A stretch of DNA of 64,000 nt from an uncultured Chloroflexia bacterium (GTDB lineage Bacteria; Chloroflexota; Chloroflexia; Thermomicrobiales; UBA6265): contig CAVRUC010000013.1 in assembly GCA_963724295.1 (NCBI GenBank), positions 523,210 to 587,209 on the forward strand, read 5' to 3'. A program made the position numbers and the translations under genes. Below are positions 1-42,125 of this stretch, piece by piece. The first letter of the stretch is position 1. The number at the start of each line of letters is the position of its first letter. Under the pieces are notes generated by a model. It worked only from the letters and a program-made list of their open reading frames with translations. It did not search any database and was not told the DNA's origin.

Positions 1-13
1 GGCAAGTTATCAG

Positions 14-832
14 TCATTCGCCGCGTGAGAAGTCCGGCATCCAGAATTGCTCTCCCCAGCGGTCCCCTTGCGGAATCAGGCGCTCCTTTCGTTCGGCTCC
101 ATCCAAGATTCTCTTGATGATCGGATGAGTGGGTTTGTGCGGCGTCCGTTCCGCCAGATACATGTAGCCGATTCCGTCTGCGGGAAGCGCATTGAACCGC
201 GTTGTCAGCGTCACAACCATGTCCGCTGCGTGAGGGTCTACGAAGTCACCGAACATTGCTTTGGTCGACCACACCGCAGCAAGCCCTTCGACAGACGAGT
301 CCAAAAGGGCGCGGACGTTTCGTTCACAGCGCTGTATCCAATACGGCCAGATGACGCACTCATCCCCGAAATGCGCTTCAACAGCCTCCTTTCGCACTAA
401 CGGCGACGAAAGGGGCCGAGCGTACTGGGGGATGAAATGCGACGGTCCAACAAACTCGACTAGCACCCGGCGTCTTCCCAGTCTCACGGCGAGATCGACG
501 CGCCTCCTGCCAAACGCAACCTGAGGTTCGACCTGCGCGTCGGGCCAGACGATTTCCACAAGTCGCTTGAGAATCAACTCGTCGAGGCTGCGCGAAGCGG
601 TCCCTATTCGAGGGGCGTGTGGACTTTGAAGTTTGCCTGATCCCCATGCCCGGTGCATATCCAGCTCGCTGACGAACTTCTCTCCGTCGTGCTCCACGAC
701 CTTCAAGTTGCTGAGCGCGGTCTCGTGTACACCGAGGATCTCAGCCGCATCCGGGACGCTGAGACAGGACCCGCACCACTGATCAGAGTCATGCAGGCGA
801 AAGATTCCGTGAGACGCCCCGATCCAAGCCAT
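14..832 (-). CDS. hypothetical protein: HTH-like N-terminus + DUF559/Vsr-like (restriction-endonuclease fold) core + unknown C-terminal domain
   Basis: Part of ORF 14..1057. The first 75 codons look non-coding (they contain repeat copy 0), so the start is placed at Met76 (cat 830-832). 'SVPDAAEILGVHETALSNL' is HTH-like. 'QVAFGRRRVDLAVRLGRRRVLVEFVGPSHF...RKEAVEAHFGDECVIWPYW' resembles the DUF559/Vsr endonuclease core. The family call rests on motif memory only. Confidence 0.5.
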   Translation of the reverse strand: MAWIGASHGIFRLHDSDQWCGSCLSVPDAAEILGVHETALSNLKVVEHDGEKFVSELDMHRAWGSGKLQSPHAPRIGTASRSLDELILKRLVEIVWPDAQVEPQVAFGRRRVDLAVRLGRRRVLVEFVGPSHFIPQYARPLSSPLVRKEAVEAHFGDECVIWPYWIQRCERNVRALLDSSVEGLAAVWSTKAMFGDFVDPHAADMVVTLTTRFNALPADGIGYMYLAERTPHKPTHPIIKRILDGAERKERLIPQGDRWGEQFWMPDFSRGE

Positions 833-999
833 GACGGGTTCTTTTGTCCTCACGCATTGAGTCGTCGCTAGGCAGTTCCAGCCGCACCACGGTGAGGCTG
901 CCGGTTCAGCCGTCGCGGCCCGGGTCTCTGCCCCAACTAACCATCGCCCCAATAGGCGCCCCAAGTGACCCAAGAGGCCATCGCACTGTTCGGTACCTT

Positions 1000-1046
1000 C
1001 ATTGCTTGGGATGACCGACAGCCGAGCTAGATGTTCGGTTTTGGGT
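1000..1046. repeat. island-boundary repeat, copy 0 (partial, most diverged)
   Basis: 'gagctagatgttcggttttggg' (1024-1045) matches 'gacctagatgttcagtttttggg' (10706-10728) with 2 mismatches and one 1-nt indel. Similarity to the left part of the repeat is weak. Confidence 0.45.
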
Positions 1047-1171
1047 GTGCTTGACACACCGTAGCCATCGAGTTGAGATTAGTCGCCAGTGGCCGTGTGC
1101 TCTGCGATTCGCAGCTGCGAAACAGTTGCAAGTTACGCCGCGATTCGGGTCGTTGCAAAGGAGCCTAACCC

Positions 1172-2218
1172 ATGAGAACCGCTCACCGACGATTGTTGCA
1201 GGCCGCCGCGACGGTAATGGTCGTCATGGCGCTTGGCACGTTGCCCCTCTCTAACTCGCTGTGGCTGGTGGCGGCGCAGTCCACTGACGTGGCCTCGGCT
1301 GCGCAACAAACCGGGATACCCGCTGCTCTACACGACGGGAGTTGCCCCGACACCGGCGCGGTTGTCGCCCCTCTTACGAACGCGGTCCTTCCTTCGGGAT
1401 CACCTGTTGGCAACATCGATGCCCTACCCGCAGCTAACTCATTTACGACCGTTCCGCTGTCGCTCGCCACGATCCTTGCATCGGATCACGCGATTGTCAT
1501 CGCAGATCCGATCGACAACGCGCCCATCGCCTGCGGTGAGATCGGCGGTTCCCTTGCTGAGGAAGAGTCGCTGGCCGTCGGACTTGCGGGCCAGCAGTCG
1601 TCCGGAGTTCATGGCATCGCGTTCCTCAGCCCCGGAAGCGATGGTGGGTCGACCGGAGTTTCGTTGTTTGTCACCGTGCCCGGCGACCTGACACAGGCGC
1701 CCGTGCCGAGCCAACCAACACCGGTGCCAGCGGCTGAACAGACTACGGCAGACATCGCTCCCATCGAATCGGGCGGCCTCGGATTACCGATCGAGGAGTT
1801 CTACGCACGTTATGGGGAGGCCGCCCCTGATCCGGTGATGGACGGTGAAGTTATCAGGACGGCCAATGGCCGCATCCGCGTCAGAGCTGCGGGCAACGAC
1901 AAGGTGAACGCTGTCACACGCTACTTCGATGAAGGGGTGACGTTCGACGAAGCGAGGGCTACTGGGCTGGGATTCGCGCCCGCGGATTCGGTGTTGCTAC
2001 AGACCTACACGACGTCCGTCGGCTCAACGGTGGATCTGTACTACAGCCCGTCGTTGGAAGCTCAGTTCTCAGAAACTCACGACGTTGACGGGATGGAGTT
2101 TCCGACTTGGGTCAACGGGGAGCCGGGGCAGTTCATCATCGGCTACGGAGGATATAACCCGGCGAATGAAGTCAACGAAGTCACACGGATCGTGATGGCT
2201 CTTGGGAACAATCCCTGA
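1172..2218 (+). CDS. secreted protein of unknown function (N-terminal domain paralogous to 16234..16833)
   Basis: AAGGAG RBS upstream of the ATG. Signal peptide 'MRTAHRRLLQAAATVMVVMALGTLPLS'. The domain 'GSCPDTGAVVAPLTN...IACGEIGGSL...LAVGLAGQQSSGVHGIAFLSP' aligns with 'GTCGSPGEVVAPLAN...VACGDVGGAL...LAVGMVGMNGSGLSGVAYFTP' of the 16.2-kb gene. Confidence 0.75.
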   Translation: MRTAHRRLLQAAATVMVVMALGTLPLSNSLWLVAAQSTDVASAAQQTGIPAALHDGSCPDTGAVVAPLTNAVLPSGSPVGNIDALPAANSFTTVPLSLATILASDHAIVIADPIDNAPIACGEIGGSLAEEESLAVGLAGQQSSGVHGIAFLSPGSDGGSTGVSLFVTVPGDLTQAPVPSQPTPVPAAEQTTADIAPIESGGLGLPIEEFYARYGEAAPDPVMDGEVIRTANGRIRVRAAGNDKVNAVTRYFDEGVTFDEARATGLGFAPADSVLLQTYTTSVGSTVDLYYSPSLEAQFSETHDVDGMEFPTWVNGEPGQFIIGYGGYNPANEVNEVTRIVMALGNNP

Positions 2219-2313
2219 GCCTTACCGACACCCCGCGATCTCTTGGGACGCATTGGCGCTCCATGTTGCCGCCATAGGCTGAAAGAAGACCACTCCGTGA
2301 GGCTGAGACGCCG

Positions 2314-3024
2314 GTGACTAGGAATCCGAACTGGACCGAGGACGAGGCGATCCTTGCCCTCGACCTCTACATCCGTTCCGGCTACCGCGTTCTGTCCGGA
2401 AACCATCCTGATGTGGTCGAACTCAGCGAGTTCATGAACTCGCTGCCGATCCATCCTCCCGAATTGCGGACGAGCAAGTTCCGCAATCCATCGGGGGTAA
2501 ACACCAAGTTGGCCAATTTTCGCCACGTTGACCCTGACCGACCGGGCGGATTGTCTGGTGCCTCGAAAATGGACTACTTCGTATGGAATGAGTACGCCCA
2601 TGACATTCCTCGCCTGCGAAAGGTGGTCGAGGCCATACGTCGAAACTACCGGCAACCTGAAGTTGAGCGGGAACTCGACGATCCCGACGAAAGTGCGCCC
2701 GAGGGGCGCGTCTTGCTTCGTTCGCACAAACTACGAGAACGGAATCGGACCCTCGTAAAGAAACGAAAAGAGCGAGCTTTAGCGGAGCATGGCAGACTCA
2801 CATGTGAGGCGTGCGGGTTCGATTATCAGGCAACGTATGGAGCGCTCGGCGATGGCTTTATCGAGTGCCATCACACGGTGCCGGTTTCCGAATTGAGTCC
2901 CGGCCACGAGACGAAGGTCAGTGACCTCGCACTTTTGTGCGCTAACTGTCATCGTATGCTCCATAGGAGCAAGACCGCGCTCACCATTGCACAGCTGAAA
3001 AGTCTATTGGTGCATAGTCGGTGA
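2314..3024 (+). CDS. HNH endonuclease (McrA/COG3183-like putative restriction nuclease)
   Basis: C-terminal HNH motif 'CEACGFDY...ECHHTVPVSEL...LALLCANCHRMLHRS' (CxxC...HH...N...CxxCH). GTG start. Confidence 0.85.
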   Translation: MTRNPNWTEDEAILALDLYIRSGYRVLSGNHPDVVELSEFMNSLPIHPPELRTSKFRNPSGVNTKLANFRHVDPDRPGGLSGASKMDYFVWNEYAHDIPRLRKVVEAIRRNYRQPEVERELDDPDESAPEGRVLLRSHKLRERNRTLVKKRKERALAEHGRLTCEACGFDYQATYGALGDGFIECHHTVPVSELSPGHETKVSDLALLCANCHRMLHRSKTALTIAQLKSLLVHSR

Positions 3025-3049
3025 TGCCAATTCTTTTGTCACGGTCTTC

Positions 3050-4117
3050 TTGCCCACACAGAGACCATCTGGCACGATCCCGCCTATGCAACAGCTAGAG
3101 CCTCCACTAACTGCACTCATTGCGACTGCGGTGGAATTGTTCGTCGCGTGGCTGATCTTCCGCGTCGTGCCTAAGTCATGGGGTGAGAACCGAGTCGCGG
3201 CGTACGTCATCGTTTCTGTGTTTCTCGTCGCCGTCAATTGGGCGTTGATTAGTCTCTCTGTCTCGGGATGGCTGGCGAAACCGGAGAACGCGTCCACCGT
3301 TCAAGCGGTCTCAACGGCTGCCCAAGCGATGTTTGCCGTGGTGTTGATCGGCGTTGCGGTCTTCACGCTCCGAGCGAACGCGGATATGGCGCGAGAGACT
3401 AAGCGGATGGCGGAGGTCGCCGTGCAACAGCAGCGCGCTGCGACGAGGCCGGTCCTCGCGTTTCGCATCCATCCGCCAGAAGGTGGCAGTGCTCCCGATG
3501 CAAGCGAGTTCGTGACCGAGGCGTTCAACGTGGGGGCGGGGCCAGCGCTCGACGCACGCGTGTTCTACACCGGACCGTTCAATTTTGCCGAACCGACAGA
3601 CTACGTTCAGCCGTGCACCATCGCGGCGGGTGAAGCAGCGACGTTTACCTTTAAGCTCGACAAGGACTCGCCTTGGCAGGACCAATCCGATCCACTGAAG
3701 TGGCCGCGCACGGAAGAGGACGCCGAACTCGAACAAGAGTCACATGCACTCAGAAACGCTCCCGCAGCGTTGCTACAGGATTCGCCGGAGAATAAACGCC
3801 GGGGAGAAGTTCACAGAAAACTTCAAATCAGGTCGAATCGGTACTTCGCCGACCTGACCGCTCGTATTGCCGAGCGACACGACATCGGCCAGATTCGGGC
3901 CGAATATCGCGATCTGAGCGGGGCCGCGCATGAATCGACCGCTGACTTGCTCGTCATCAATCCCCAATCGCGTCGAGCTGTTGAGCAGAAAGCGGATCAA
4001 TTGGGTGAATTGCCAGAGTCTCCGTCTTTCCATCCGTACTGGCCCGACCTCATGCTTGGGCGATTGTCCGTGGACCCGACTCCAGCACTGCCAGACCTCA
4101 GCAGGAGTGGTCGCTGA
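3050..4117 (+). CDS. membrane-anchored protein, unknown family (paralog set A)
   Basis: TM helices ('ALIATAVELFVAWLIF','VAAYVIVSVFLVAVNWALISL','AMFAVVLIGVAVFTL'), then a helical 'ARETKRMAEVAVQQQ' segment, then a beta-rich domain 'RPVLAFRI...FNVGAGPALDARVFY'. The N-terminal half aligns with the 6074..7246 product. Start uncertain (TTG 3050 or ATG 3086). Confidence 0.7.
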   Translation: MPTQRPSGTIPPMQQLEPPLTALIATAVELFVAWLIFRVVPKSWGENRVAAYVIVSVFLVAVNWALISLSVSGWLAKPENASTVQAVSTAAQAMFAVVLIGVAVFTLRANADMARETKRMAEVAVQQQRAATRPVLAFRIHPPEGGSAPDASEFVTEAFNVGAGPALDARVFYTGPFNFAEPTDYVQPCTIAAGEAATFTFKLDKDSPWQDQSDPLKWPRTEEDAELEQESHALRNAPAALLQDSPENKRRGEVHRKLQIRSNRYFADLTARIAERHDIGQIRAEYRDLSGAAHESTADLLVINPQSRRAVEQKADQLGELPESPSFHPYWPDLMLGRLSVDPTPALPDLSRSGR

Positions 4118-4836
4118 TGTCACTCAGGCTTCCTACACTCAGTGCGCAACGGGGTATTCCGACTCTCGTAGCTGGCGAGGCTTTGCTGATCCTGCTGGCA
4201 ATCGCTCTTGGAAGAGACCCCAACAGAATCGCGGATTACGCGACCATCCTGATCTCGCTGACGACGCTGTTCGCGCTTGCAATCTTCCATCGCGAGGTTC
4301 TGGATACTCAGTCGCGCCTGCACCGGGAAGTCATGGGTGAACAGGCGAATATACGCCGCTTGCAGACCCGCCCACAGGTACTCGTCTATTTCGCTCGCTC
4401 GCGGGATCGGAAGATGCTGGAGATGCTAGTGCTGGTCATCGAGCATTTCGGTGGGGGTCCGGCGCTCGATGTGCAGTTCACCTTCTCTCCTCCGCTCGTC
4501 AACTCCGAGGGCACAACGTTCGCCAACGAGCCACCCTTTTCAACAGGGATTGCGGTGATGGAACCGGGGTTCCGCCGCGAGATCAAATTTGACGACTACC
4601 ACCAGTTTCAAAAGCGTGCCGGAACGACCAGAATCGGCAGCAGGGTTATTAGGGCAGACATCGAAGAAACCCGGCTCGATTTTGAGGCAACCGTGACACT
4701 TCGCGATCCGATCGGTGACGATCTGCGATATGAAACCCGCTACAAACTCGATCTGAGAGACCTCATGCCGTACACGATGGACTTCCTCGCCGAAGCCGAA
4801 CCACAACCAGAGGCATGGATAAGGGGCGAGCCATAA
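4117..4836 (+). CDS. membrane-anchored protein, unknown family (paralog set A)
   Basis: The ATG overlaps the upstream stop (TGATG), implying translational coupling. TM segments 'LVAGEALLILLAIAL' and 'ILISLTTLFALAIF'. 'RPQVLVYF..IEHFGGGPALDVQFTFSPPL..EPGFRREIKFDDY' aligns with 'LPVILVRF..IHNYGGPATDVVFSFDPPL..PPGWDQEVRFDDY' of 6074..7246. Confidence 0.75.
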   Translation: MSLRLPTLSAQRGIPTLVAGEALLILLAIALGRDPNRIADYATILISLTTLFALAIFHREVLDTQSRLHREVMGEQANIRRLQTRPQVLVYFARSRDRKMLEMLVLVIEHFGGGPALDVQFTFSPPLVNSEGTTFANEPPFSTGIAVMEPGFRREIKFDDYHQFQKRAGTTRIGSRVIRADIEETRLDFEATVTLRDPIGDDLRYETRYKLDLRDLMPYTMDFLAEAEPQPEAWIRGEP

Positions 4837-4931
4837 GACCCGCCCCGTTGCCTGATCTGCCGGGTGTGAGGTGTCAGACCGCGCCCTACGCGGCGTGTTC
4901 CGGCGACGGCACATTTCCTGCTGGTGATGGA

Positions 4932-5001
4932 CTCAGGCCGCGATTTCCCGCGCCGCATCGTCAGCGGTGAAGCGGAAGATGATTGGTGCCTGACCTAGAT
5001 G
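4932..5001. repeat. island-boundary repeat, copy 1
   Basis: 58/66 nt identical to 10650-10715 (my manual alignment). It ends at '...ggtgcctgacctagatg'. Confidence 0.85.
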
Positions 5002-5048
5002 GTCCGTCGATGAGGATCATGGGTGTCCGTCTCCAAGTGCTCGCTCTA

Positions 5049-5978
5049 CTAAGCAAAGATGGAAGTAAGTACAGAGAAATCGACGTTACCACTCAGGATT
5101 TGTCGCACTGCCAATTTGAGCGCTTCTTCGCTGATCGTCTTGCCTGCGCTCCCTGCGGCTTCCGACGCCCGTTTGATCCACTGGCCGACGCGACTCTCTT
5201 CACGGTCAACATCTTCAACCCTCGATTCCTCAACAATCGGGGTAAGGTCGTCGACCTCGATTCCTTGCGCACGAAACAGGTCGTTCAATCTGTTGACGAG
5301 GATCAGGCTTTGCTGACTCACCATGTTGCTGGCAATGGGCATGGTTCCGGTCGCGACGCCTACTGTGGGGTTCCCACCGTGAAAAATGAACTGATTGAAG
5401 ACCTGCCCAATCGCTTGATCGGTGTCGGGGTCGTTTGGCAGAGCAGCTTCACTAACCTCCGGGTAGAGCGTCTCGATTTCAAGGACGAACTGGAGCAGGC
5501 CCGTGCAAATAGACGACAGAATCCCTTTGATTGAAGCAAGCGAAACCACCTGACGATCCGATACAAGTGCTTCAAGTCTTTGTTGGAGGACGACTTCGAG
5601 ATGGCGATGCGCTATTCCCGCAGGAAGAAAGCGTACGTCCGTGCCTTCACTCGCCCACGAAACAAGCTGCGCAACACTTTCTCGAACGTCAACGGATGAT
5701 GCCGATTTGTACGCAGCTTCGTCAGTGAACATGTCCCACGGCGCAGTTCTCTGTTGTTGGTACCCCACTCCCGATGCGTGATACCAAATCGAAGCCGGGA
5801 CAACGCGATAGTCTGGAAGTTCGGCGTCCTTCCCATAACCACGAAGTTCACTGTCAACCCACACTCGGAACGGTTCGTAACCCAGTCGCGTCGCGAGGAG
5901 GTATGCCCGTCTCAACGTCTTGTCGAAATCTGGGCCGCACTCGATCGCACCATCGCGGATGGCGTCAAGAAGGGACAT
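5049..5978 (-). CDS. AbiTii-like abortive-infection domain protein
   Basis: The N-terminus 'TLRRAYLLATRLGYEPFRVWVDSELRGYGKDAELPDYRVV' fits my recollection of the AbiTii N-terminal pattern (LLR..a..lA..l....F..Wv..EL.GY....vP.YR). The rest is unassigned. Confidence 0.6.
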   Translation of the reverse strand: MSLLDAIRDGAIECGPDFDKTLRRAYLLATRLGYEPFRVWVDSELRGYGKDAELPDYRVVPASIWYHASGVGYQQQRTAPWDMFTDEAAYKSASSVDVRESVAQLVSWASEGTDVRFLPAGIAHRHLEVVLQQRLEALVSDRQVVSLASIKGILSSICTGLLQFVLEIETLYPEVSEAALPNDPDTDQAIGQVFNQFIFHGGNPTVGVATGTMPIASNMVSQQSLILVNRLNDLFRAQGIEVDDLTPIVEESRVEDVDREESRVGQWIKRASEAAGSAGKTISEEALKLAVRQILSGNVDFSVLTSIFA

Positions 5979-6073
5979 TGCTCACGCCTCCCCAGCGAGG
6001 ACTCGTCTGCTGACATTTGACTCTGTGCAGCCACATTATCGCAAGGTAGAAGGGGCGACCGACGCCGCACTTC

Positions 6074-7246
6074 TTGCCCTCACAGGAACAATCTGGCACG
6101 ATCGAAATCATGTCCGACCTGATGCCCGAGATCACCGCCTTCTTGCTCGCTGCAACTGTAGTCCTGTGGGCGTCCTTCGCGTTCCTCCTCGGTCCGACCC
6201 TCTGGAAGTCGGATCGGCGGGCGTTCTACCTCTGCCTTGGCGTGGGAATCGTCTATGGGTGGCTACTCACCCGCTTTCTTGCGTCCGGGTGGCTGGGGAA
6301 GCCAGAGAACGCGACCACCGTGGAAGCGCTCGCGGCAGCCGCGCAAGCACTCTTCACTGTGGCGCTCATTGTTCTTACGGTGCGTACCGTTCAAGCGAAC
6401 GCCAAGATAGCGGATGAAACAAAGCTGATGGCGGCGGAGACAGCAAGAATGGCTTCGGAGACTGAGAAGATGGCTGCGGTTGCCGCCGAACAGCTTCGGA
6501 ACACCACACTCCCAGTGATCCTTGTGCGCTTTCGCTCCACCTTTGACATGGAGCGTGGTGCCGAGAAAGGGAGAATCTGGATCAACATCCACAACTACGG
6601 CGGTCCGGCAACCGATGTGGTGTTCTCTTTTGATCCGCCGCTAATTCGCTCGAATGGCGAAGACATAGGACTGAGGCCGACGTTCCTCACCGGCGTTCCA
6701 GTCGTACCTCCGGGTTGGGATCAGGAAGTGAGGTTTGACGACTACGACGATTACATTGATGACCTCTTTCTACAGGGAGGACGGACATACCTATTCGACG
6801 CAACCATTACTTCTCGCGATCCGTACTCCGGAGATTTCTTTCCACCAACCACAATCAGAATGGATCTCCGCCACCTCTCTCTTCAGCCGCTCGAAGGCAA
6901 TTGGGATCCGGCCACCGAGTTTAGAGACGAGCGGAACTGGCGAACCGACCCGCGGACTGACGTCGATTCTGCGCAGCTACAACGGGTTCTCGAATCATTT
7001 ACGGAGGAAGAGGTACCGAGAGAAGTGATAGGACCGTTGGATCAGCACTTCCGCCGGTCCTTTCAAAGGGCCGGCTGGTCAGTAGCCATCGGGAAACATG
7101 ACATTTGGTGGCGGGCAGTCGCAACGAAGCAATCAGGTATCCATCAGGGGACTAGTGTCGGGGCGAGCGCTTGGTCTACGCAAGCGACGCTTGCGTTCAC
7201 ACTGAGGAAAGCTCTCGATTTGGACGCGGAGGTGAGCGCGGGCTGA
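6074..7246 (+). CDS. membrane-anchored protein, unknown family (paralog set A, fused architecture)
   Basis: The N-terminal TM region plus 'GWLGKPENATTVEALAAAAQALFTVALIVLTV' aligns with the 3050 product ('GWLAKPENASTVQAVSTAAQAMFAVVLIGVAV'). The C-terminal beta domain aligns with the 4117 product. There is an internal triple repeat 'ETKLMAA/ETARMAS/ETEKMAA'. Start is TTG 6074 or ATG 6110. Confidence 0.75.
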   Translation: MPSQEQSGTIEIMSDLMPEITAFLLAATVVLWASFAFLLGPTLWKSDRRAFYLCLGVGIVYGWLLTRFLASGWLGKPENATTVEALAAAAQALFTVALIVLTVRTVQANAKIADETKLMAAETARMASETEKMAAVAAEQLRNTTLPVILVRFRSTFDMERGAEKGRIWINIHNYGGPATDVVFSFDPPLIRSNGEDIGLRPTFLTGVPVVPPGWDQEVRFDDYDDYIDDLFLQGGRTYLFDATITSRDPYSGDFFPPTTIRMDLRHLSLQPLEGNWDPATEFRDERNWRTDPRTDVDSAQLQRVLESFTEEEVPREVIGPLDQHFRRSFQRAGWSVAIGKHDIWWRAVATKQSGIHQGTSVGASAWSTQATLAFTLRKALDLDAEVSAG

Positions 7247-7265
7247 GAAGGGGCACACTATTCTT

Positions 7266-7293
7266 ATGACAGCGAGGCGGCTCTTAGTATAAG
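7266..7293 (+). promoter_or_regulatory. candidate sigma70-type promoter for the 7319-8767 module
   Basis: 'ATGACA' (7266-7271), a 16-nt spacer, then 'TATAAG' (7288-7293). The small palindrome 'ctcttagtataagag' overlaps the -10. GGGAGGAAG RBS upstream of ATG 7319. Pattern match only. Confidence 0.3.
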
Positions 7294-7318
7294 AGTCGCG
7301 GGAGGAAGACACTCTAGC

Positions 7319-8227
7319 ATGACAAGCACACAAGTCCGGTCTGCTTACATCGTCGCCTCAAAAGGTACGAATGTGGTGCCCCTTGTTGAAGCACTCGATT
7401 CTAGGGGGGTCTCAACGAAAACTAGCCCTCTCATCTTGGGCCAAGCTCGGATCGACCAAGAAATCATATCGGCTATTCGATCAGCAGATATGGTGATCGG
7501 TGTTCTTTGGGAGCGAGGCCCGGATCCCAACGTCATGGTTGAGTTAGGCATCGCGGTCGGGCTAGGTCGATCGCTCCTACTGTTTGGCGGTGAAGGCTCG
7601 AACGTACCTTCCAATCTTCGAAACTCTGTAGTGGTTGTCCGCATGTTGTCATGGAACGAAGCAATATTCCAGACCCACCTAGATCCATTCTTAGAGCAGT
7701 TGTCGTCCCGTCGAGAGCAACCGGAACGTAACACTCAAACCAGTTCGACTACCCAGCCATTGAGTCTTCATGCCTTCGAGGCCGCACTGAACCACTTAGG
7801 TTCCATTGAGTCAGCAGGCCACACTCCGAATGAGTCGGAAGTCGTTGGTCTATTGGCGACCTTTTTTCAGGCGTCCGGCTATTTGGTGTCAATCGAGCAT
7901 CGGCAGCTGCAGACAGGGCGGACGCGGCCAGATCTGGCAGTTTGGGTCGAGGATCTCCCTGCCCGAGTCGGCAGTCCTTTGCTCATCGAAGTTGCTCTTC
8001 GCAACGCGATGATCAACCAGAGACTAGCGCAGTTTCAGCACCTCTTACATGATTTCAAAAGTGAAGGAGGGCTAATAGTCACTTGGAGCGATACGAAAAG
8101 CTCAGGTATTTCAGGCAATCCGAATGACCCAAGAATCCCGATCTTGAGCGTTCGAGATCTAGTCAACGCGTTGAAGTTAGGAGTGTTCGCGGAGGTCTAT
8201 TTGCGTCGTTCTACAGCAAAATCGTAA
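7319..8227 (+). CDS. TIR-like / nucleoside 2-deoxyribosyltransferase-like domain fused to a degenerate PD-(D/E)xK (Mrr-like) domain
   Basis: N-terminal ~125 aa: 'AYIVAS...IISAIRSADMVIGVLWERGPDPNVMVELGIAVGLGRSLLLFGGEGSNVPSNLRNSVVVV'. This has the aD.vi.vl...pNV..ELG.a.glGr...l....vPSnL pattern of TIR-like/NDT-like Rossmannoid domains. C-terminal: 'VVGLLATFFQASGYLVSIEH...RPDLAVWVED...SPLLIEVALRNA...GGLIVTWSD' has an Mrr-cat-like layout, but the E-x-K lysine is replaced (E-V-A). About 53% GC. Confidence 0.6.
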   Translation: MTSTQVRSAYIVASKGTNVVPLVEALDSRGVSTKTSPLILGQARIDQEIISAIRSADMVIGVLWERGPDPNVMVELGIAVGLGRSLLLFGGEGSNVPSNLRNSVVVVRMLSWNEAIFQTHLDPFLEQLSSRREQPERNTQTSSTTQPLSLHAFEAALNHLGSIESAGHTPNESEVVGLLATFFQASGYLVSIEHRQLQTGRTRPDLAVWVEDLPARVGSPLLIEVALRNAMINQRLAQFQHLLHDFKSEGGLIVTWSDTKSSGISGNPNDPRIPILSVRDLVNALKLGVFAEVYLRRSTAKS

Positions 8228-8233
8228 GTTACT

Positions 8234-8767
8234 ATGGGTGACATTGATCCTTCAGTCATCAATGAATATCTGAGTGTTCGAATTGTGGATGGAGATACCA
8301 CGAGTCAGGGCCGAGCGCTCGAAGAGCTAATGTGCTATGTGCTGGAGAAAGTGCCCGGTTTCATTGTCACACATAGGAACACTATGAACGTCTTCCATAC
8401 TGAAGAAGTAGATGTCGCAATTTGGAATGATCCACATGAGCATGGCATCAGAACGTTTCCCGGAGCTTGGCTCGTCGAGTGTAAGAATTGGAGCGGTAGG
8501 GTTGGAAGCCAAGAGGTCGGATATTTCGCGAGAAAGCTTCTGAATCGACGAGTCGATGTCGGAGTGCTTGTCGCGCTGAATGGAATCACTGGTGTTCCGC
8601 AAGAACTTACGAACGCACACTACGAAATGGCGACAGCGCTCAAAGATGGTGCCCGTATTATTGTGCTTGATCGCGACGATTTGCTCAGACTTACTCATGG
8701 GAAAGAGCTTGCTGCGCTTATAAAGGCGAAGATTTGCGAGTTAGTGTTGACTGCCACCAACGCGTAA
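8234..8767 (+). CDS. Mrr-type (type IV-like) restriction endonuclease domain protein
   Basis: 'GRALEELMCYVLEKVPGF...EEVDVAIWND...AWLVECKNWSGRVGSQEVGYFARKL..VGVLVALNGITG'. The D...E-C-K catalytic motif is canonical and the Mrr_cat topology is typical. It starts 6 nt after the upstream stop. About 52% GC. Confidence 0.8.
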   Translation: MGDIDPSVINEYLSVRIVDGDTTSQGRALEELMCYVLEKVPGFIVTHRNTMNVFHTEEVDVAIWNDPHEHGIRTFPGAWLVECKNWSGRVGSQEVGYFARKLLNRRVDVGVLVALNGITGVPQELTNAHYEMATALKDGARIIVLDRDDLLRLTHGKELAALIKAKICELVLTATNA

Positions 8768-8780
8768 CACCCGTCTTTGA

Positions 8781-8860
8781 TTATGCCATCCTGATCGCAT
8801 CCTCCGCCGTGAACCGCAGCACCACCGGTTCCCGACGTAGAGGTTCTGTATATGGGGTTT
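8781..8860. repeat. island-boundary repeat, copy 3 (diverged)
   Basis: The minus-frame translation '...TPYTEPLRREPVVLRFTAEDAIRMA*' parallels copy 2 '...CPKTEHLGQAPLILRFTADDAVREIAA*'. On the plus strand, 'ccgacgtagaggttctgtatatgggg' matches 'ctgacctagatgttcagtttttgggc' at 19/26. Confidence 0.6.
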
Positions 8861-8991
8861 GTGGGTGAGACGCCCAACGTTGTCCGGGTCGGTGGGCGAA
8901 CGGCGACAAGCGGCTACTATCGGGTGTGACCTAATAGATCTCAATCACCCCCGGAGACCTAATCCCTAAGCGGGGCTAACTCGGCTGTGTC

Positions 8992-9336
8992 TCACTCCTG
9001 ACGCTTGGGTGGCCGACCTCGTCGTCGCTGTCCTTCTGGAGATGATGTCTGCTTCCCCTTGCGGGTCCGCGGCTCATCGGTCTTTCTGACGGCGACGAAG
9101 CCGTCCCCCTCGACGGTCTCCACCGTGAGTCCGCGACTTCGTGCAGCCCGACTGATGGCCGCACGCAGCCCCCTCGCGCTCTGCCCCTCCACAAGCGGCA
9201 CCCGCACCGGACTACCAGTTTCGATTTCAGTGAGGAGGGCGACCATCGCCGGATCGGTCTTGCGCATCTTTTGCTGTCGCAGCGAGGCGAACTCTTCTTC
9301 CGAAAACGGCGCAAATGATTCGATCTTGACAGGCAC
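8992..9336 (-). CDS. small hypothetical protein with basic AT-hook-like tail
   Basis: 114-aa ORF with plausible composition and a C-terminal 'GQRRRGRPPKRQE'. Preferred over the overlapping Arg-rich 174-aa frame (8976..9500). Confidence 0.5.
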   Translation of the reverse strand: MPVKIESFAPFSEEEFASLRQQKMRKTDPAMVALLTEIETGSPVRVPLVEGQSARGLRAAISRAARSRGLTVETVEGDGFVAVRKTDEPRTRKGKQTSSPEGQRRRGRPPKRQE

Positions 9337-9638
9337 TCGTGTCTCCTTATTGCCGCATTTCCGATCACTGCGGTGATCCTAGCACGGAGAACATTCGCAG
9401 TTTGAGACAGACGCGTAGCCATAACAACGCACTCTGACCAGAACGGTCTGACGATCCATCCGCCAATCTCCCGCTCGCGAACGTCATTTGCGATTAGCAC
9501 AAGAGCACAATAGCCAAGCGACCATAGGGTCGAGAGCGGCTGAATCGAATTGCCATCTCGCCTAGACTGGTTCAGAACGTTCTATAGGCCGATCCACCTG
9601 ATCTGGCGGCGATCTGCCCATAGGGTAGGGATTGTTGA

Positions 9639-10556
9639 ATGAGCACCTATAAAGAGAAATTCATGAGCAAAGAAGAGTTCATGAGCCAGCCGCCCGATCC
9701 TGAGCGTGAGGAGCGTTGGCGACTTGCACGACGCGATGACCTCGCGAACGTCTTTGGTGTGGTGCTAACCGTTCCAATCCACGGACAGGACGAGCTAGGA
9801 AACTGGCGATATGGGTTACCTCCGCACAGCGGCATACCAAGCCAAGACATCACGAAAGAGTTCGAGGCCGAGATGCGCTCAATTATTGTTGAGAGTGCGT
9901 CTCCTCTAGTCATAGCTGGCATCCTGTCGGAGCAACAAGTCCAACAGATCAAGAGTCACAGCTACGAAACCGGACCGGCGGCGCAGGGTTGGCCCCAGAC
10001 CTTCTTCGAGATCTATCAGCAAGTGGCGCCGATCATTGCCGGATCGGCTGACCTTATTGCTGTAGCCGACTTCGTCAAGCAGGTCGCCAGTCGCATACGG
10101 AGTTGGCAACAGCGAAGTCATGAGGAGATTGAGCGGAATCATGGAGATACGCTAGATCGCACCACACCAGTGGATCTCGATCCTCATATCGTCTGGACAC
10201 TCCCCAATCTGGTAGCCCTGTGCTACACGGATCTGGTTCAGCGCCACCATAGAAGCGGCGACTGCAACATTACCGTCTTCCCTCGAAATCGATGGGCAGG
10301 GTATGGATCTGCGGATCATCCATCGGGAGGCGAAACCTACCTTATCCGCCTCACAACGGGTGCGTCGAGTTACTTCTATCTCGTTGACGGACACGGCGGA
10401 GTCTCCGAGCACTATCGAACCAATGGTGACGATCTGGAACTACTTGCGCTTCCGGACTTACTGCCTAACGACAGGTCAGGCAACCCGTACAGGCAACCGG
10501 AGCAACCCCGGCGATTCGAGGTGCGGGCATCGGTGTCGCTAAACGAGCAAGCGTGA
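9639..10556 (+). CDS. hypothetical protein (no recognisable domain)
   Basis: 305-aa ORF with non-repetitive, balanced composition, divergent from 8992..9336 across a 300-bp spacer. Start ambiguous (several Met in the first 15 codons). Confidence 0.55.
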   Translation: MSTYKEKFMSKEEFMSQPPDPEREERWRLARRDDLANVFGVVLTVPIHGQDELGNWRYGLPPHSGIPSQDITKEFEAEMRSIIVESASPLVIAGILSEQQVQQIKSHSYETGPAAQGWPQTFFEIYQQVAPIIAGSADLIAVADFVKQVASRIRSWQQRSHEEIERNHGDTLDRTTPVDLDPHIVWTLPNLVALCYTDLVQRHHRSGDCNITVFPRNRWAGYGSADHPSGGETYLIRLTTGASSYFYLVDGHGGVSEHYRTNGDDLELLALPDLLPNDRSGNPYRQPEQPRRFEVRASVSLNEQA

Positions 10557-10645
10557 GCGCATACGGGAGCTGTCCGCGCACTGTTGTTACAGGAGCAAAC
10601 TAAGCCATCCTGCAGTGGAACTCCGAGCATGAAATACGACCCCCG

Positions 10646-10730
10646 CTCAGGCCGCAATCTCCCGCACCGCGTCGTCAGCAGTGAACCGGAGGATGAGTGG
10701 TGCCTGACCTAGATGTTCAGTTTTTGGGCA
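10646..10730. repeat. island-boundary repeat, copy 2 (abuts and includes the RBS and start of the LLM gene)
   Basis: See copies 0, 1 and 3. It contains GGAGGA (10688-10693) and GTG 10697/10700, the start of the LLM gene. Confidence 0.85.
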
Positions 10731-11794
10731 TGATCCGGACCGACAACATCTCGGAGATCGACAGCGCCGTCGCCCTGTCTGTCGAGGCCACGATCGATCC
10801 GGACTTCGTGCGTGACTTCGCCCGCGCCCACGAAGCGGCGGGGTTCGACCGGGTCCTCATCGGCTACCACTCCACCGGTCCCGATGCCTGGCTCGTCGCC
10901 GCCCACGCCGCCGCCAATACGGAGCGCCTGCACATGCTGGTGGCGCACCGGCCGGGGTTCCAGGCGCCGACGGTCGCCGCCCGTGCCGCGGTGACGCTGG
11001 ACCATTTCAGCGGGGGCCGGGTCTCGCTCAACATCGTCACCGGCGGCAGCGATAGCGAGCTGGCGCGTGACGGCGACTGGTCCGCGAAGGACGACCGCTA
11101 CCGGCGCACCGATGAGTTCCTCGACATCGTGCGGGCCATGTGGACCAGCGCCGAGCCATTCGACTACGAGGGCGAGTTCTACCAGGTGAAAAACGCCTTC
11201 TCCGACGTAAAACCGCTGCAACGCCCCTCGATCCCGATCTACTTCGGCGGCGCCTCAGGGGCGGCGGTCCCGGTCGGCGCGAAGCATGCCGACGTCTACA
11301 TGTTCTGGGGCGAGCCACTCGCGGACACCACGGCGCGGATGGATGCCGTGCGAGCGGCCGCGCCTCCGGGGCGGTCCCCTGCCTTCAGCGTCTCCGTGCG
11401 ACCGATTCTCGGCGCGACGGAAGCCGAAGCGTGGGACAAGGCGCACGGCTACCTGGAGCGGATCGTCGCCCATCGCGGGAACGGGCCGGGTTCCGCCCCC
11501 GCGGCCGGCTCGCAACGGCTGCTCGATCTCGCGGCACAACGCGAGGTCTTCGACGACCGGCTCTGGATGGCGATCGCCGCGGCCACCGGCGCGGGCGGCA
11601 ATACCTCCGCCCTGGTCGGCACCGCGGAGCAGGTCGCCCAGTCGCTGCTGCGCTACTACGACGCGGGCATCACCAGTTTCCTGATCCGCGGCTTCGAACC
11701 GCTGCAGGATGCCACCGAGTTCGGCCGGGAGCTGATCCCGCTCGTCCGCGAAGAAGTCGCCCGCCGCGACCGCGCCAGCCGGGTCGCCGTCTAG
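10700..11794 (+). CDS. LLM-class flavin-dependent oxidoreductase (SsuD/alkanesulfonate monooxygenase-like)
   Basis: 'VQFLGMI...AGFDRVLIGYHSTGPDAWLVAAHAAANTERLHMLVAHRPGFQAPTVAARAAVTLDHFSGGRVSLNIVTGG' parallels SsuD. GTG start 6 nt after GGAGGA (alternative GTG 10697). Confidence 0.9.
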   Translation: MPDLDVQFLGMIRTDNISEIDSAVALSVEATIDPDFVRDFARAHEAAGFDRVLIGYHSTGPDAWLVAAHAAANTERLHMLVAHRPGFQAPTVAARAAVTLDHFSGGRVSLNIVTGGSDSELARDGDWSAKDDRYRRTDEFLDIVRAMWTSAEPFDYEGEFYQVKNAFSDVKPLQRPSIPIYFGGASGAAVPVGAKHADVYMFWGEPLADTTARMDAVRAAAPPGRSPAFSVSVRPILGATEAEAWDKAHGYLERIVAHRGNGPGSAPAAGSQRLLDLAAQREVFDDRLWMAIAAATGAGGNTSALVGTAEQVAQSLLRYYDAGITSFLIRGFEPLQDATEFGRELIPLVREEVARRDRASRVAV

Positions 11795-11863
11795 CTCTGC
11801 CTGGCTCTAACGGCGGTAACGCCTTGCACTTGCACTAGCGGGAGTCCATCCGGTGACTGCCGT

Positions 11864-11895
11864 CCCCCTCTCCTGTCTCCGACGGGAGAGGGGGG
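11864..11895. terminator. candidate bidirectional terminator hairpin between convergent genes
   Basis: A 10-bp perfect stem, 'ccccctctcc' (11864-11873) pairing with 'ggagaggggg' (11885-11894), with an 11-nt loop. It is followed by G-tract words (GGGGGTAGGGGGGTGAGGG...GGGTAGGGGGTGAGGG) up to 11934. Confidence 0.5.
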
Positions 11896-11934
11896 TAGGG
11901 GGGTGAGGGCCGGTGCGGGTAGGGGGTGAGGGTC

Positions 11935-12447
11935 TCAAAACCGCCAGCGGGTCGCGCCATACGGCTCAGCGGTGGCGAGACCGAAAACCGTGTGGAACGT
12001 GAAGCGGTAGAGGTCCCAGGGTGGCGGTCCCGCGCTGGGAGCGCTGTACGGCGCCGTGAACGCCTCGCCCTCCACTTCCGCCGGCCACCCGCCCTCGCGG
12101 TACAGACCGGCCACCGTCTCCAGCGTCGGCCGATCGGTCACCCGGGTCGCTTCGCCCTCCAGCACGAGGTCGATGCCTTCCCGGCTGATGGAGATCGTGC
12201 AGGCCGGGTTCGCCGCCAGATTGCGCGACTTGCGGGTCCCCGGCCCGCTCGTGAAATAGACATCCCCGTCGTGCCAGCGAGCGCCGACGGGAACGGCGTG
12301 CGGTCGTCCGTCCGGACGCGACGTACCGAGGAAAACGACCGCGGACATCGGTGGCGAGGCGAGGCGGTCGCGTGCCCGGCTCCACGGCATGGCCGCGTTT
12401 CCGTAGCGGTCGAGATTCGTGACGTCGACGGGTTCTCGTTCGGGCAT
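11935..12447 (-). CDS. pyridoxamine 5'-phosphate oxidase (PPOX)-family split-barrel protein
   Basis: 'VVFLGTSRPDGRPHAVPVGARWHDGDVYFTSGPGTRKSRNLAANPACTISI' is a typical PNPOx-like motif. Confidence 0.8.
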   Translation of the reverse strand: MPEREPVDVTNLDRYGNAAMPWSRARDRLASPPMSAVVFLGTSRPDGRPHAVPVGARWHDGDVYFTSGPGTRKSRNLAANPACTISISREGIDLVLEGEATRVTDRPTLETVAGLYREGGWPAEVEGEAFTAPYSAPSAGPPPWDLYRFTFHTVFGLATAEPYGATRWRF

Positions 12448-14160: not shown

Positions 14161-14398
14161 GGGGGTGCCGCCTTCGGCTCAGGGGGTGCCAGCCGCTTGC
14201 ACGGCTTCAGGGGGAGCCGGTCGCTGCGCTCCCTCAGGGGGTGGCGTCCGCTGCGCGGACTCAGGGGGGTAGGAGGACGACTAAGATCGCCGTCGTGCTT
14301 CTTCCCCCCTGAGCCGCAGGCGCCACCCCCTGAGGCGGTGAAACCGCCGGCACCCCCTGAGGCGCAGCCGGCACCCCCTTCGTAAAGGAGATCGGGAC
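14158..14398. repeat. nested palindromic array of TCAGGGGG[TA]G words
   Basis: Five direct units (the first overlaps the ACAD stop codon), a central hairpin at 14261-14312, then inverted units 'CACCCCCTGA' x2 plus a partial one. Confidence 0.8.
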
Positions 14399-16072: not shown

Positions 16073-16216
16073 AGGTGTCATTCCGAACCCGCCGTCACGG
16101 TGTCATCCCGAGCCCGCAGGCAACGTGTCATTCCGAGCCCACAGGCGAGGAATCTCGTCTGCGGCATATGAACGCGGCCTGCGGCCGAGATCCATCACCC
16201 GTTCAGGATGACACCG
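16073..16216. repeat. GGTGTCAT[CT]CCGA[AG]CCC word repeats (3 direct + 1 inverted)
   Basis: Direct units start at about 16073, 16099 and 16134. The third is 'gtgtcattccgagcccacaggcgaggaatc'. An inverted 'gatgacacc' lies at 16207-16215. Confidence 0.75.
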
Positions 16217-18432: not shown

Positions 18433-19281
18433 ATGAACCTGAATACGATCGAAGAGGTGCGCAGCGCCGCCGCCGTCGATGGCGGCGACGTCCGGTGGCG
18501 GGAGGGGGATAGCTGGCTGGCGGGTGGAACCTGGCTCTTCTCCGAGCCGCAGCCGCACCTGCGCCGCCTGCTTGACCTGCGCGCCCTCGACTGGCCGGCG
18601 CTGGAGGTCGATGACGATGGCCTGCGCATTGCCGCCACCTGCACCGTCGCCGACCTTTACGCGTTCCCCGGGCGACCGGACTGGCCGGCGTCGTTCCTGA
18701 TCGATGAGTGCTGCCGTGCGTTCCTCGCGTCGTTCAAGATCTGGAACACGGCCACCGTCGGCGGCAACATCTGCATGTCCCTGCCGGCGGGTCCGATGAT
18801 CTCGCTCGCGACGTCCCTGGAAGGGATCTACACCCTGAGGTCACTCGACGGCAGCGAGCGCCAGGTCCCGGCCATCGAGTTCGTCATCGGCAATCATCAG
18901 AACGTGCTCCTGCCGGGTGAGCTGCTGCGCACGATCGAGCTCCCCGCCTCGGCGCTGCGGAAGCGTGCGGCATTTCGCCGGGTGTCGCTGACCCACATGG
19001 GGCGCTCGACCGCGCTCGTGATCGGCACGGCCGCTTCGCCGGATGCGACGTTCGTGCTGACCGTGACCGCGGCCACTCCCTACCCTGTGCAGCTGACATT
19101 CCCCGAGGTCCCTGATGCCCGCACCCTGCGGGAGCGCCTCCAGGAAGAGATTCCGGATAGTGGGTACTTCGACGACGTCCACGGATCGCCGGACTACCGC
19201 AAGCACATGACGCACTACTTCGCCGAGCAGATTCGGGCCGAGCTGGCAGGCGAGGGTGGCAGGGTGATGGGTGATGGGTGA
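18433..19281 (+). CDS. molybdenum hydroxylase FAD-binding (medium, CoxM/XdhB-like) subunit
   Basis: ATG 18433 after GAGGA. 'WLAGGTWLFSEPQP...LRIAATCTVADL...WNTATVGGNICMSLPAGPM...SPDYRKHM'. The ORF-track start 18307 was rejected as an upstream extension. Confidence 0.85.
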   Translation: MNLNTIEEVRSAAAVDGGDVRWREGDSWLAGGTWLFSEPQPHLRRLLDLRALDWPALEVDDDGLRIAATCTVADLYAFPGRPDWPASFLIDECCRAFLASFKIWNTATVGGNICMSLPAGPMISLATSLEGIYTLRSLDGSERQVPAIEFVIGNHQNVLLPGELLRTIELPASALRKRAAFRRVSLTHMGRSTALVIGTAASPDATFVLTVTAATPYPVQLTFPEVPDARTLRERLQEEIPDSGYFDDVHGSPDYRKHMTHYFAEQIRAELAGEGGRVMGDG

Positions 19282-19442
19282 TAGGTGTCAGGGTCGCAGG
19301 GTCGCAGGGTCGCAGGGTGGCTGGGTCGCAGGGAGAACCAGCCCGCCACCTCGCCACCCTGCCACCCTGCCACCGTGAGCGCAGCGAACAAATACCCTGC
19401 CACCACGAGCGCAGCGAGTAATCACCACGAGCGGAGCGAGTC
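19262..19442. repeat. composite word-repeat spacer inside the Mo-hydroxylase operon
   Basis: (GGGTGAT)x3 overlapping the stop codon at 19279-19281, (GGGTCGCA)x3-4, 'CCACCCTGCCACCCTGCCACC', and 'CACGAGCGCAGCGAGTAATCACCACGAGCGGAGCGAGTC'. Confidence 0.8.
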
Positions 19443-33265: not shown

Positions 33266-33478
33266 TGTGATCCCGAGGGCACGAGCTTGCAGGATCTCGT
33301 CGGTGTCCTTAGCGCGGCGTCTGACCGGTCGGAAGTCGGAGGTCGGAAGTCGGAGGATTGTCCTCCGGCTATCAGCTATCGGCCATTAGCTTCCTACGAC
33401 TCACGACTGATCACGACTCACGATTCGCGGTCTCTCTTCTCCACTTACCGACTAACCGACTTACCGACTTACCGACTG
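33266..33478. repeat. modular word-repeat element, copy A
   Basis: 'gcgtctgacc', (GTCGGAA/GTCGGAG)x4, 'ccggctatcagctatcgg', (CGACTCACGA)-type words, 'ggtctctcttctc', and (CCGACTNA)x4 overlapping the stop of the DinB gene. Confidence 0.85.
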
Positions 33479-41970: not shown

Positions 41971-42125
41971 CGCTGGAACGGCGTCTGACGAGTCGGAGGT
42001 CGGAAGTCGGAAGTCGGAAGTCGGAAGATCGGTCCGCCGGCTATCAGCTGTCAGCTATCAGCTATCGGTCTCTTCTCGTTCTAGCCGTCTAGCCGACTCA
42101 CCGACTCACCGACTCACCGACTTAC
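41971..42125. repeat. modular word-repeat element, copy B
   Basis: Same module order as 33266-33478: 'gcgtctgacg', (GTCGGAA)x4, 'ccggctatcagctgtcagctatcagctatcgg', 'tctcttctc', (CCGACTCA)x3 + CCGACTTA. It overlaps the stop of 42114..43427. Confidence 0.85.

Follow-up and report, generated by a model that had tools for sequence, protein, structure and literature searches.

Results

Repeat Units Delimiting a Low-GC Island at the LLM Gene

The subject of this analysis is the left end of a 64,000-nucleotide (nt) stretch of DNA (hereafter, the window) from an uncultured Chloroflexia bacterium of the Thermomicrobiales (contig CAVRUC010000013.1), where an island of accessory genes is divided by repeat units of ~86 bp (units B, C and D, and a remnant termed copy A) into three cassette-like blocks and abuts a gene for a flavin oxidoreductase of the luciferase-like monooxygenase (LLM) class (Table 1). 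The island occupies positions 1–10.7 kb, runs on leftward past position 1 and stands out by its base composition (50–62% GC vs. 63–73% in the remainder of the window). The GC drop noted in a preliminary description of this DNA is thus real: the fractional GC content of the blocks, which differ mutually, is 0.54–0.59 and that of the repeat units 0.57–0.61, vs. 0.705 in the LLM body and 0.663 in the remaining 52 kb of the window. At the right edge, it steps from 0.58 in unit D directly to the value of the LLM body.

A profile of the repeat unit, built for nhmmer from 18 copies in nine sequences (the window and its relatives), detects units D, B and C with E-values of 1e-31, 3e-26 and 7e-22, respectively, so that the repeats reported earlier, including the diverged unit C, are genuine. 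Units B and D are identical at 66 of 76 positions (4932–5007 vs. 10646–10721) as judged by repeat finding, local alignment and BLAST, and a 22-nt pattern (TCGTCNGCNGTGAASCGSAGSA, up to two mismatches) matches only B, C and D in the entire 64 kb, against 0.01 matches expected. The fourth, partial copy, originally placed at 1000–1046, is reduced to a start-codon/core remnant of ~37 nt at 1009–1046 (73% identity to D over 37 nt; ~20 of 23 positions identical with one gap), which is marginal and was missed by the profile at E ≤ 1. Likewise, a position just downstream of plus-strand cargo genes, attributed earlier to all copies, holds for B, C and D (95, 13 and 89 nt after the last plus-strand stop codon) but not for copy A, which follows a minus-strand gene.

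Unit D carries the ribosome-binding site (RBS) GGAGGA (10683–10688) and the start GTG GTG (10697–10702) of the LLM gene, exactly as initially described, and supplies its first five or six codons. Only ~18 nt of the unit (10715–10731) are LLM sequence, and all internal copies diverge right after this core. The remaining ~65-nt arm, which contains the peptide signature as well as the RBS and the start codon, is low in GC, belongs to the element and is also found at non-LLM loci; the earlier view that each repeat is a displaced copy of the chromosomal site was therefore mostly wrong. Unit C extends into a radC-like 5' remnant of ~12 codons (to 8880; plus frame EVLYMGFVGET).

Several conventional identities of the unit were tried and rejected. 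An attC-like hairpin or a structured RNA/riboswitch is not supported by folding each strand of B, C and D as single-stranded DNA (z-scores between +0.60 and −1.86), by the consensus fold of 12 copies (−3.1 kcal/mol, covariation term 0) or by Rfam, which yielded no relevant match at E ≤ 1 in window positions 1–12000. The units contain no promoter or terminator consensus, which rejects a module of that type, and a remnant of an insertion sequence or miniature inverted-repeat transposable element was dismissed given the lack of a transposase and of any inverted repeats bracketing blocks or units in a repeat search of the window. The only conserved inverted repeat in the unit alignment is 5 bp long (GCATC...GATGT).

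Occupied and Unoccupied Sites in Related Loci

The LLM protein assigns the window to Thermomicrobiales/Chloroflexia, and a look-up of its exact sequence returned no recorded entry. Pattern scans of genome and metagenome collections yielded short contigs only. Related loci include both unoccupied and differently occupied LLM genes. In L005 and L006, a divergent acetyltransferase gene is followed by a spacer of ~215 nt and then by the LLM gene with its native 5' end (ATG CCC GTT CAG CTT ATC GGC ATG; protein MPVQ[L/F]IGM) and no unit, which provides the empty site that had been proposed for comparison. Another locus, L027 (P0060 contig), has neither a unit nor an island upstream of LLM, and its LLM has a non-canonical N-terminal extension. 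In L001, L002 and L003, a D-type unit is fused to LLM; homology of the window to these loci begins at 10646/10647, the left edge of the unit, and to the left of this edge they are unrelated to the window (global alignments, when forced, give ~46–50% identity). With the unit-less L004, L005 and L006, homology begins instead at 10715. Cargo is unrelated among the window, L001, L002, L003 and L004 despite LLM sequences that are 82–95% identical.

In L004, imperfect 18-bp repeats that reproduce the LLM 5' end, GTTCAGTCCATCGGGATG and GTGCAGTTCATCGGCATG, enclose an insert of 4.85 kb; the left, displaced copy keeps a type-1 arm, while the LLM-proximal side leads to a different N-terminus, MGRMDNGEREPVEGRHSVQFIGM. 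Junctions may be densely spaced, with four of them within 5.5 kb in L002 and two ~140 nt apart in L001 and in L009, and cassettes range down to a single gene (a STAND ATPase between two units in L002) and to near-empty ones. Among 120 LLM homologues, most have the canonical N-terminus MP.QFIGM, and the LLMs of Thermomicrobiales display at least five unrelated N-terminal types before QF[I/L]GMIRT. Unit divergence is decoupled from LLM divergence: the arm is 78% identical between the window and L001 and 90% identical between the window and L003, the corresponding values for the LLM body being 94.6% and 81.9%. The serial insertion or accretion at an att-like (attachment site) hotspot suggested in the preliminary description is thus supported by empty sites, swapped cargo, the flanking repeat of L004, mosaic N-termini and decoupled divergence. 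On the points named there as decisive, the compared genomes have entirely different intervening genes, similarity among the copies is significant and their codon signature (see below) persists.

Two side observations concern these contigs. The displaced unit of L004 (127–148) has an 11-bp tandem duplication (TAGTGCCTGAC TAGTGCCTGAC) at its start-codon region. The assemblies containing L001, L002 and L025 (ENA ERZ250395xx) have many frameshifted genes (e.g., the LLM proteins P0059 and P0110 are out of frame), probably reflecting long-read assembly error; since the genes are frameshifted, missing Pfam matches in the cargo of these three loci are weaker evidence than they appear.

A Coding-Like Signature on the Minus Strand

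Units B and D differ at eight positions of the 23-codon minus-strand tail, five of which are third-position synonymous changes and three conservative replacements (I/L, F/L, A/V), and the ratio of non-synonymous to synonymous variation (pN/pS) in the peptide frame across 18 copies is 0.53, so that the coding pattern read earlier on the minus strand is real. In the same 18 copies, column entropy at codon positions 1, 2 and 3 amounts to 0.55, 0.45 and 0.98 (Mann–Whitney p = 5e-4), the peptide frame has a single stop codon in total vs. 12–28 in its five alternatives, and in 14 of the copies the conserved stretch does not extend past the minus-frame stop codon; the mean BLOSUM score is 3.19 in the peptide frame vs. 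2.38 in the best other frame. One plus-strand frame with the same wobble phase also scores a pN/pS of 0.60, and the strand is therefore assigned from residue conservation and the stop-codon boundary. Coding of the arm in the plus-strand radC/LLM frame was rejected, this frame having two conserved stop codons and a wobble position that is the least variable column class; plus-strand coding in the frame sharing the wobble phase retains a residual chance.

In metagenomes, the peptide belongs to a family of 43–45-aa open reading frames (ORFs) with a conserved Met. The ancestral gene anticipated in the earlier work did not materialize, as a HMMER profile search of 1.84 billion proteins found no full-length gene, only ORFs of 30–100 aa and a few chance or read-through fusions, together with two proteins of ~2,000 aa with multiple weak matches, which were not examined further. 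No longer gene emerged from a word-indexed search with a tandem-duplicated alignment (queries need at least 40 aa), tblastn against plasmids gave no match, and no relative of the peptide was found in IMG/VR, where a DNA-pattern scan returned one match, a gene tail that is DUF559-like by eye. A DUF559/Vsr-like origin (PF04480/PF18741) was considered and rejected upon a Pfam scan of 16 peptides that produced no DUF559 match. The resemblance to DUF559 (GWLVLRFTADD) is suggestive, with DUF559 matches at E = 0.04–2, and an hhalign value of 94.6% over 16 columns is circular because these matches were picked by the word LRFTADD.

Units Away From the LLM Gene and Their radC-Like Right Arms

Members of the unit family are frequent in soil metagenomes, and the profile search returned 57 small ORFs; such units also adjoin genes other than LLM: a 5'-truncated sulfatase gene in L017, a cyclase/STAND ATPase gene located downstream of the unit in L025 and L002, and, in a further case, an AAA_15 and DUF6998 gene pair that precedes the unit. 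The second of these contexts also includes several small ORFs with N-terminal extensions antisense to MPDLPSGTVTF....

Many internal units continue on the right into a plus-strand sequence encoding VPDLDVLYMG(I/V)RGET(I/V)TD(V/L)SQRLL..HG, and similarity to genuine radC genes at the DNA level sets in at G-I/V-x-G-E-T, directly right of the core. A fragment of this arm in L011 matches the RadC-like protein of L025 (64% identity over 36 aa, E = 2e-12), which itself passes the Pfam cut-offs (UPF0758_N, 36.1 bits; RadC, 27.9 bits), while the radC-like arm alone scores E = 1e-3, under the Pfam cut-off. These similarities identify the right arms of the units as radC. In L002, positions 4560–4690 encode DGEDRSSCQFIG joined to IRGETVTDVSQRLLAQHGE, the left half of which matches the type-2 LLM N-terminus of P0002 (MDHLHDGERRSLCQFIG followed by MIRT); the alternative LLM N-termini are thus those of radC variants joined to LLM at a common QFIG-coding core. 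No radC-like arms were found in viral contigs. A separate candidate, the segment 4502–4894 of L004 as a coiled-coil remnant of a large serine recombinase, received no support, with Pfam, homologue, phage tblastn and PDB sequence searches all empty.

Cargo Genes of the Island

The coordinates of units, cassettes and genes are given in Table 1.

Table 1. Features of the island and of the adjoining LLM gene (window coordinates).
Feature	Position	Strand	Remarks
Left-most visible island gene	14–832	−	GC 0.59; weak HTH_17 match only
Copy A	1009–1046	+	Decayed start-codon/core remnant GCTAGATGTTCGGTTTTGGGTGTG; no recognizable peptide arm
Cassette 1	1047–4931	+	GC 0.59; four genes
Cassette 1 gene	1172–2218	+	Secreted or of no assigned family
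Cassette 1 gene	2314–3024	+	HNH/type IV restriction-like nuclease
Cassette 1 genes	3050–4117 and 4117–4836	+	Paralogous membrane-anchored proteins
Unit B	4932–5017	+	Minus-strand peptide tail HLGQAPIIFRFTADDAAREIAA plus stop at 4933–5001, then start-region copy gtgcctgacctagatg; diverged core
Spurious ORF	4983–5534	+	Begins in unit B; antisense to AbiTii gene
Cassette 2	5018–8780	both	GC 0.54; heterogeneous internally
Cassette 2 gene	5049–5978	−	AbiTii
Cassette 2 gene	6074–7246	+	Membrane paralogue
Cassette 2 gene	7319–8227	+	TIR-like/Nuc_deoxyrib_tr protein
Cassette 2 gene	8234–8767	+	Mrr_cat nuclease
Unit C	8781–8866	+	Minus-strand tail EPLRREPVVLRFTAEDAIRMA, stop at 8781–8783
Cassette 3	8867–10645	both	GC 0.57
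Cassette 3 genes	8992–9336 (−), 9639–10556 (+)		Neither with family match
Unit D, fused to LLM	10646–10731	+	Minus-strand tail HLGQAPLILRFTADDAVREIAA, stop at 10647–10649
LLM-class (SsuD-like) flavin oxidoreductase	10697–11794	+	365 aa; first gene of conserved right flank
Proposed recombination core gttcagtttttgggcat	10715–10731	+	First stretch homologous to unit-less LLM genes (GTTCAGCTTATCGGCATG in L005)

The designation of this region as a defense island is justified by some (but not most) of its genes, namely those for AbiTii, the HNH/type IV-like nuclease, the TIR-like protein and the Mrr-type nuclease, whereas the majority have no assignable function. The ORF beginning inside unit B was rightly regarded as spurious, being antisense to the AbiTii gene. 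Pfam scans of the ten larger island ORFs and of 30 further window ORFs revealed no recombinase or transposase domain, and no tRNA is present in the window, in agreement with the initial statement that integrase, transposase and tRNA genes are missing from it.

Members of one family of membrane-anchored proteins are encoded in both cassette 1 and cassette 2 (41% identity over 155 aa between the products of 3050–4117 and 6074–7246; 30% over 199 aa between those of 4117–4836 and 6074–7246), so that the contents of the blocks are not fully independent. A 34-nt stretch that is 88% identical (3046–3079 and 6070–6103) spans the starts of two of these membrane-protein genes. GC reaches its minimum for the window in the adjacent genes 7319–8227 (0.52) and 8234–8767 (0.49), the first encoding a protein with a TIR-like/nucleoside 2-deoxyribosyltransferase-like N-terminus and the second the Mrr_cat nuclease, which together may form a two-gene defense module; PADLOC analysis of this pair gave no system match beyond a weak TIR effector hit. 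An AbiTii gene adjoins a unit in two arrays that are unrelated; in L003 (gene at 158–430) it lies left of the unit next to LLM, and in the window right of unit B.

Other Features of the Window

Outside the cassettes, back-to-back arrays of different 7–8-nt tandem repeats (4–6 copies each) occupy three intergenic regions (19262–19448, 33327–33477 and 41991–42131), with repeat units such as GGGTGAT, CAGGGTCG and CCACCCCG in one region and AGTCGGA, GCTATCA and CCGACTCA in a second one. Further repeats occur within 14178–14379 and 16073–16150: the start of a gene for a cNMP-binding/pyridine-nucleotide-disulphide oxidoreductase is bracketed by a 27-nt repeat (3.3 copies) and a subsequent 21-nt repeat (3.3 copies), the latter partly the reverse complement of the former, and the same gene is directly followed by a separate array of 3.1 copies of a 25-nt repeat. 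The spacer just 3' of the LLM stop codon (11860–11940) is G-rich and contains repeated GGGGGTGAGGG-like motifs, to which a 30-nt match at 9100–9129 is related. Composition outliers include 62001–63000 (GC 0.73, AT skew +0.34) and 44001–46000 (AT skew from +0.23 to +0.27).

Discussion

Proposed Mechanism and Its Alternatives

On balance, and with moderate confidence, we interpret positions 1–10.7 kb as the LLM-proximal part of an integrative cassette array that was accreted by site-specific recombination within the first codons of the LLM gene. In this mechanism, the ~86-bp unit would represent the right-hand junction of each cassette, composed of a ~65-nt element-borne arm (minus-strand tail and, on the plus strand, RBS and GTG) and a core of ~14–18 nt, which matches LLM codons 3–8 (VQF[I/L]GM), the presumed chromosomal attachment site. 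In the free or ancestral element, the core would be located within the 5' end of a radC-like gene, and integration would swap the 5' ends: the LLM gene would acquire the RBS, start codon and first codons of the element, and the radC-like gene of the element would stay beside the previous (far) junction. Newcomers would integrate at the LLM-proximal junction and displace older cassettes leftward, where deletion would erode them to radC remnants of 12–35 codons and to some "empty" cassettes of 100–145 nt, with the recombinase acting in trans or encoded beyond position 1. We infer that recombination was site-specific rather than homologous or illegitimate, that the cassettes arrived in this order and that a circular intermediate was involved. 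Both ingredients have precedents, as the tandem accretion of integrative elements that decay to integrase-less cis-mobilizable elements (CIMEs) is an established process (PMC5704250) and SXT/R391 is known to insert at the 5' end of prfC, a protein gene (PMC4344509). The hotspot interpretation of the preliminary description is retained, and the element-borne arm, the lack of a full-length ancestral gene and the radC-like partner are corrections to it.

Several observations weigh against this mechanism. Copies of the core are only 13–15 of 18 positions identical, and their right-hand limits are fuzzy; the codon-like conservation of the arm is unusual for an att arm and is not accounted for; units away from LLM, such as that of L017, require secondary sites or later rearrangement. 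Furthermore, neither the window nor the Pfam assignments precomputed for ~40 kb of related island DNA yielded an integrase, transposase or other recombinase, the reciprocal junction at the left end of an array was never seen, and no circular or excised form was observed.

The failure to find a recognizable recombinase in any of ~10 cassettes (in the window, L001, L002, L004, L025 and the P0137 contig) is consistent with a true cassette system without an integrase of its own (integron-like or of the Xer-dependent pdif type), where the unit and its radC-like right arm would constitute a dedicated site and a single recombinase encoded elsewhere would capture, excise and reshuffle cassettes that never carried an integrase. 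The sharp boundaries (conservation ends at the same left nucleotide in nearly all copies), the existence of single-gene (STAND ATPase in L002) and near-empty cassettes and the wide distribution of the unit family, with its 57 small ORFs, fit such a system as well. It is, nevertheless, rather unlikely in our judgment, since the units do not fold into a hairpin or any attC-like structure (z-scores between +0.6 and −1.9; consensus fold of −3.1 kcal/mol without covariation) and have no dyad-symmetric dif-like core by eye, the cassettes hold several genes on both strands, the shortened radC remnants resemble the decay of larger elements rather than designed sites, and no candidate recombinase lies beside any of the arrays. 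A bolder version of the same idea, to which we attach a similarly low probability, is an undescribed cassette-capture platform of Thermomicrobiales, where integrase-less cassettes would be exchanged by a trans-acting recombinase at a non-hairpin module of ~90–240 bp. This module, just as doubtfully, would span the conserved ~45-aa antisense ORF and the radC-like 5' end, each capture, within the first codons of the core gene, re-priming that gene with a new RBS, start codon and N-terminus.

The same lack of a recombinase, found nowhere in this analysis, could also mean that no dedicated enzyme was ever involved, and that one or a few ancient fusions, illegitimate or microhomology-driven, placed a radC-like 5' region in front of LLM at the shared QFIG stretch. 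DNA taken up later would then have replaced the cargo by ordinary homologous (or homology-facilitated illegitimate) recombination, with LLM and the repeated units as anchors. LLM and radC-variant sequences indeed share CAGTTCATCGGCAT-like stretches able to support microhomology joins, and the right-hand limits of the copies vary. We regard this scenario as unlikely: illegitimate joins would scatter, whereas the junctions fall on the same ~18 nt at many loci and across at least five independent types of N-terminus; the units, 74–90% identical over 50–86 nt, are poor RecA substrates; and the insertion in L004 is clean and bounded by the core repeat. It is quite improbable, finally, that the unit is mainly a functional small gene (for the 45-aa antisense protein) or a portable RBS/start regulatory module traveling with many genes. 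The minus-frame coding signature with conservation ending at the stop codon, the metagenomic family of 43–45-aa ORFs with a conserved Met and the placement of units directly upstream of LLM, STAND/cyclase, radC-like and sulfatase genes would all agree with such a role. However, LLM-adjacent copies have no start codon, no Shine–Dalgarno sequence precedes the conserved Met in L017 or L025 (as read from the sequence), the units show no promoter or terminator consensus, Rfam family or conserved structure, and neither the duplicated LLM core nor the empty sites would be explained.

Comparison With Known Systems

Among known systems, the closest parallels to the site-specific accretion proposed here are the tandems formed by ICEs (integrative and conjugative elements), IMEs (integrative and mobilizable elements) and CIMEs related to ICESt1/ICESt3 of Streptococcus thermophilus (PMC5704250). 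They likewise include members without integration genes, and newcomers integrate at the junction with the target gene; correspondingly, the 5' core of LLM recurs in units B, C and D and in remnant A, the L004 insert has its 18-bp flanking repeat, relatives with an unoccupied target exist and the blocks differ where the flanking gene is common. The differences are that the target here is the 5' end of a protein gene rather than a 3' end, that the host belongs to Thermomicrobiales, that no integrase-bearing member was seen and that the blocks are only 1.8–3.9 kb long. With SXT/R391, the island shares insertion within the 5' coding end of a core gene, in that the RBS, GTG and first 5–6 codons of LLM come from unit D. 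SXT itself, in the work of Hochhut and Waldor from 1999, reportedly supplies a replacement 5' end and leaves the target gene functional. It is, however, a self-transmissible element of ~100 kb with its own tyrosine integrase, as opposed to short cassettes without a visible recombinase, and neither an integrase of the Int_SXT family nor conjugation genes were found in the window; furthermore, the reciprocal partner here is a radC-like gene.

Composite islands of staphylococcal cassette chromosome (SCC) elements at rlmH (orfX) of staphylococci are arrays delimited by integration-site repeats, which include pseudo-SCC elements without a recombinase and often contain defense or restriction genes; SCC elements use the 3' end of rlmH and large serine recombinases of the Ccr type. 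The repeat-delimited arrangement including recombinase-less members is common to both, whereas no Ccr-type gene was found here. Integron arrays, including clusters of attC sites lacking integron-integrases (CALINs), similarly consist of short cargo units that each end in a site-like repeat, contain no integrase inside and are rich in defense genes. They differ from the present array, which has no attC hairpin or R/L boxes and, in the part covered by the window (it continues left of position 1), no recognizable intI, holds 2–4 genes per cassette including minus-strand ones (integron cassettes being mostly single promoterless ORFs in one orientation), and has a repeat with coding-like conservation, an RBS and a start codon. 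For Xer-dependent modules (integrative mobile elements exploiting Xer, IMEX, and pdif modules) with their 28-bp dif-like site, no 11-6-11 dyad was recognized in the units by eye; the dif consensus of Chloroflexi was not compared.

Significance

Overall, the finding is one of tandem accretion in Chloroflexi, at a protein gene's 5' end and without a visible recombinase, and hence a variant of an established process. On the practical side, LLM start codons and small ORFs at such junctions are prone to mis-annotation, and the unit, if the proposed mechanism is true, provides a sequence handle for variable and defense regions in Thermomicrobiales metagenomes. The identity of the enzyme would separate ordinary decayed islands from a real trans-mobilized cassette system, and it is a worthwhile target because ~10 cassettes were inspected without a recombinase being found; the platform discussed above, should it exist, would be a functional analogue of integrons with a different site chemistry. 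For the biology of this poorly studied soil phylum, the proposed mechanism, if true, would mean an integration hotspot for mobile DNA within the start of a core gene, where every insertion rewrites the translation signals and the N-terminus of LLM, and where the 5' end of that gene is reciprocally swapped with that of a radC-like gene of the element.

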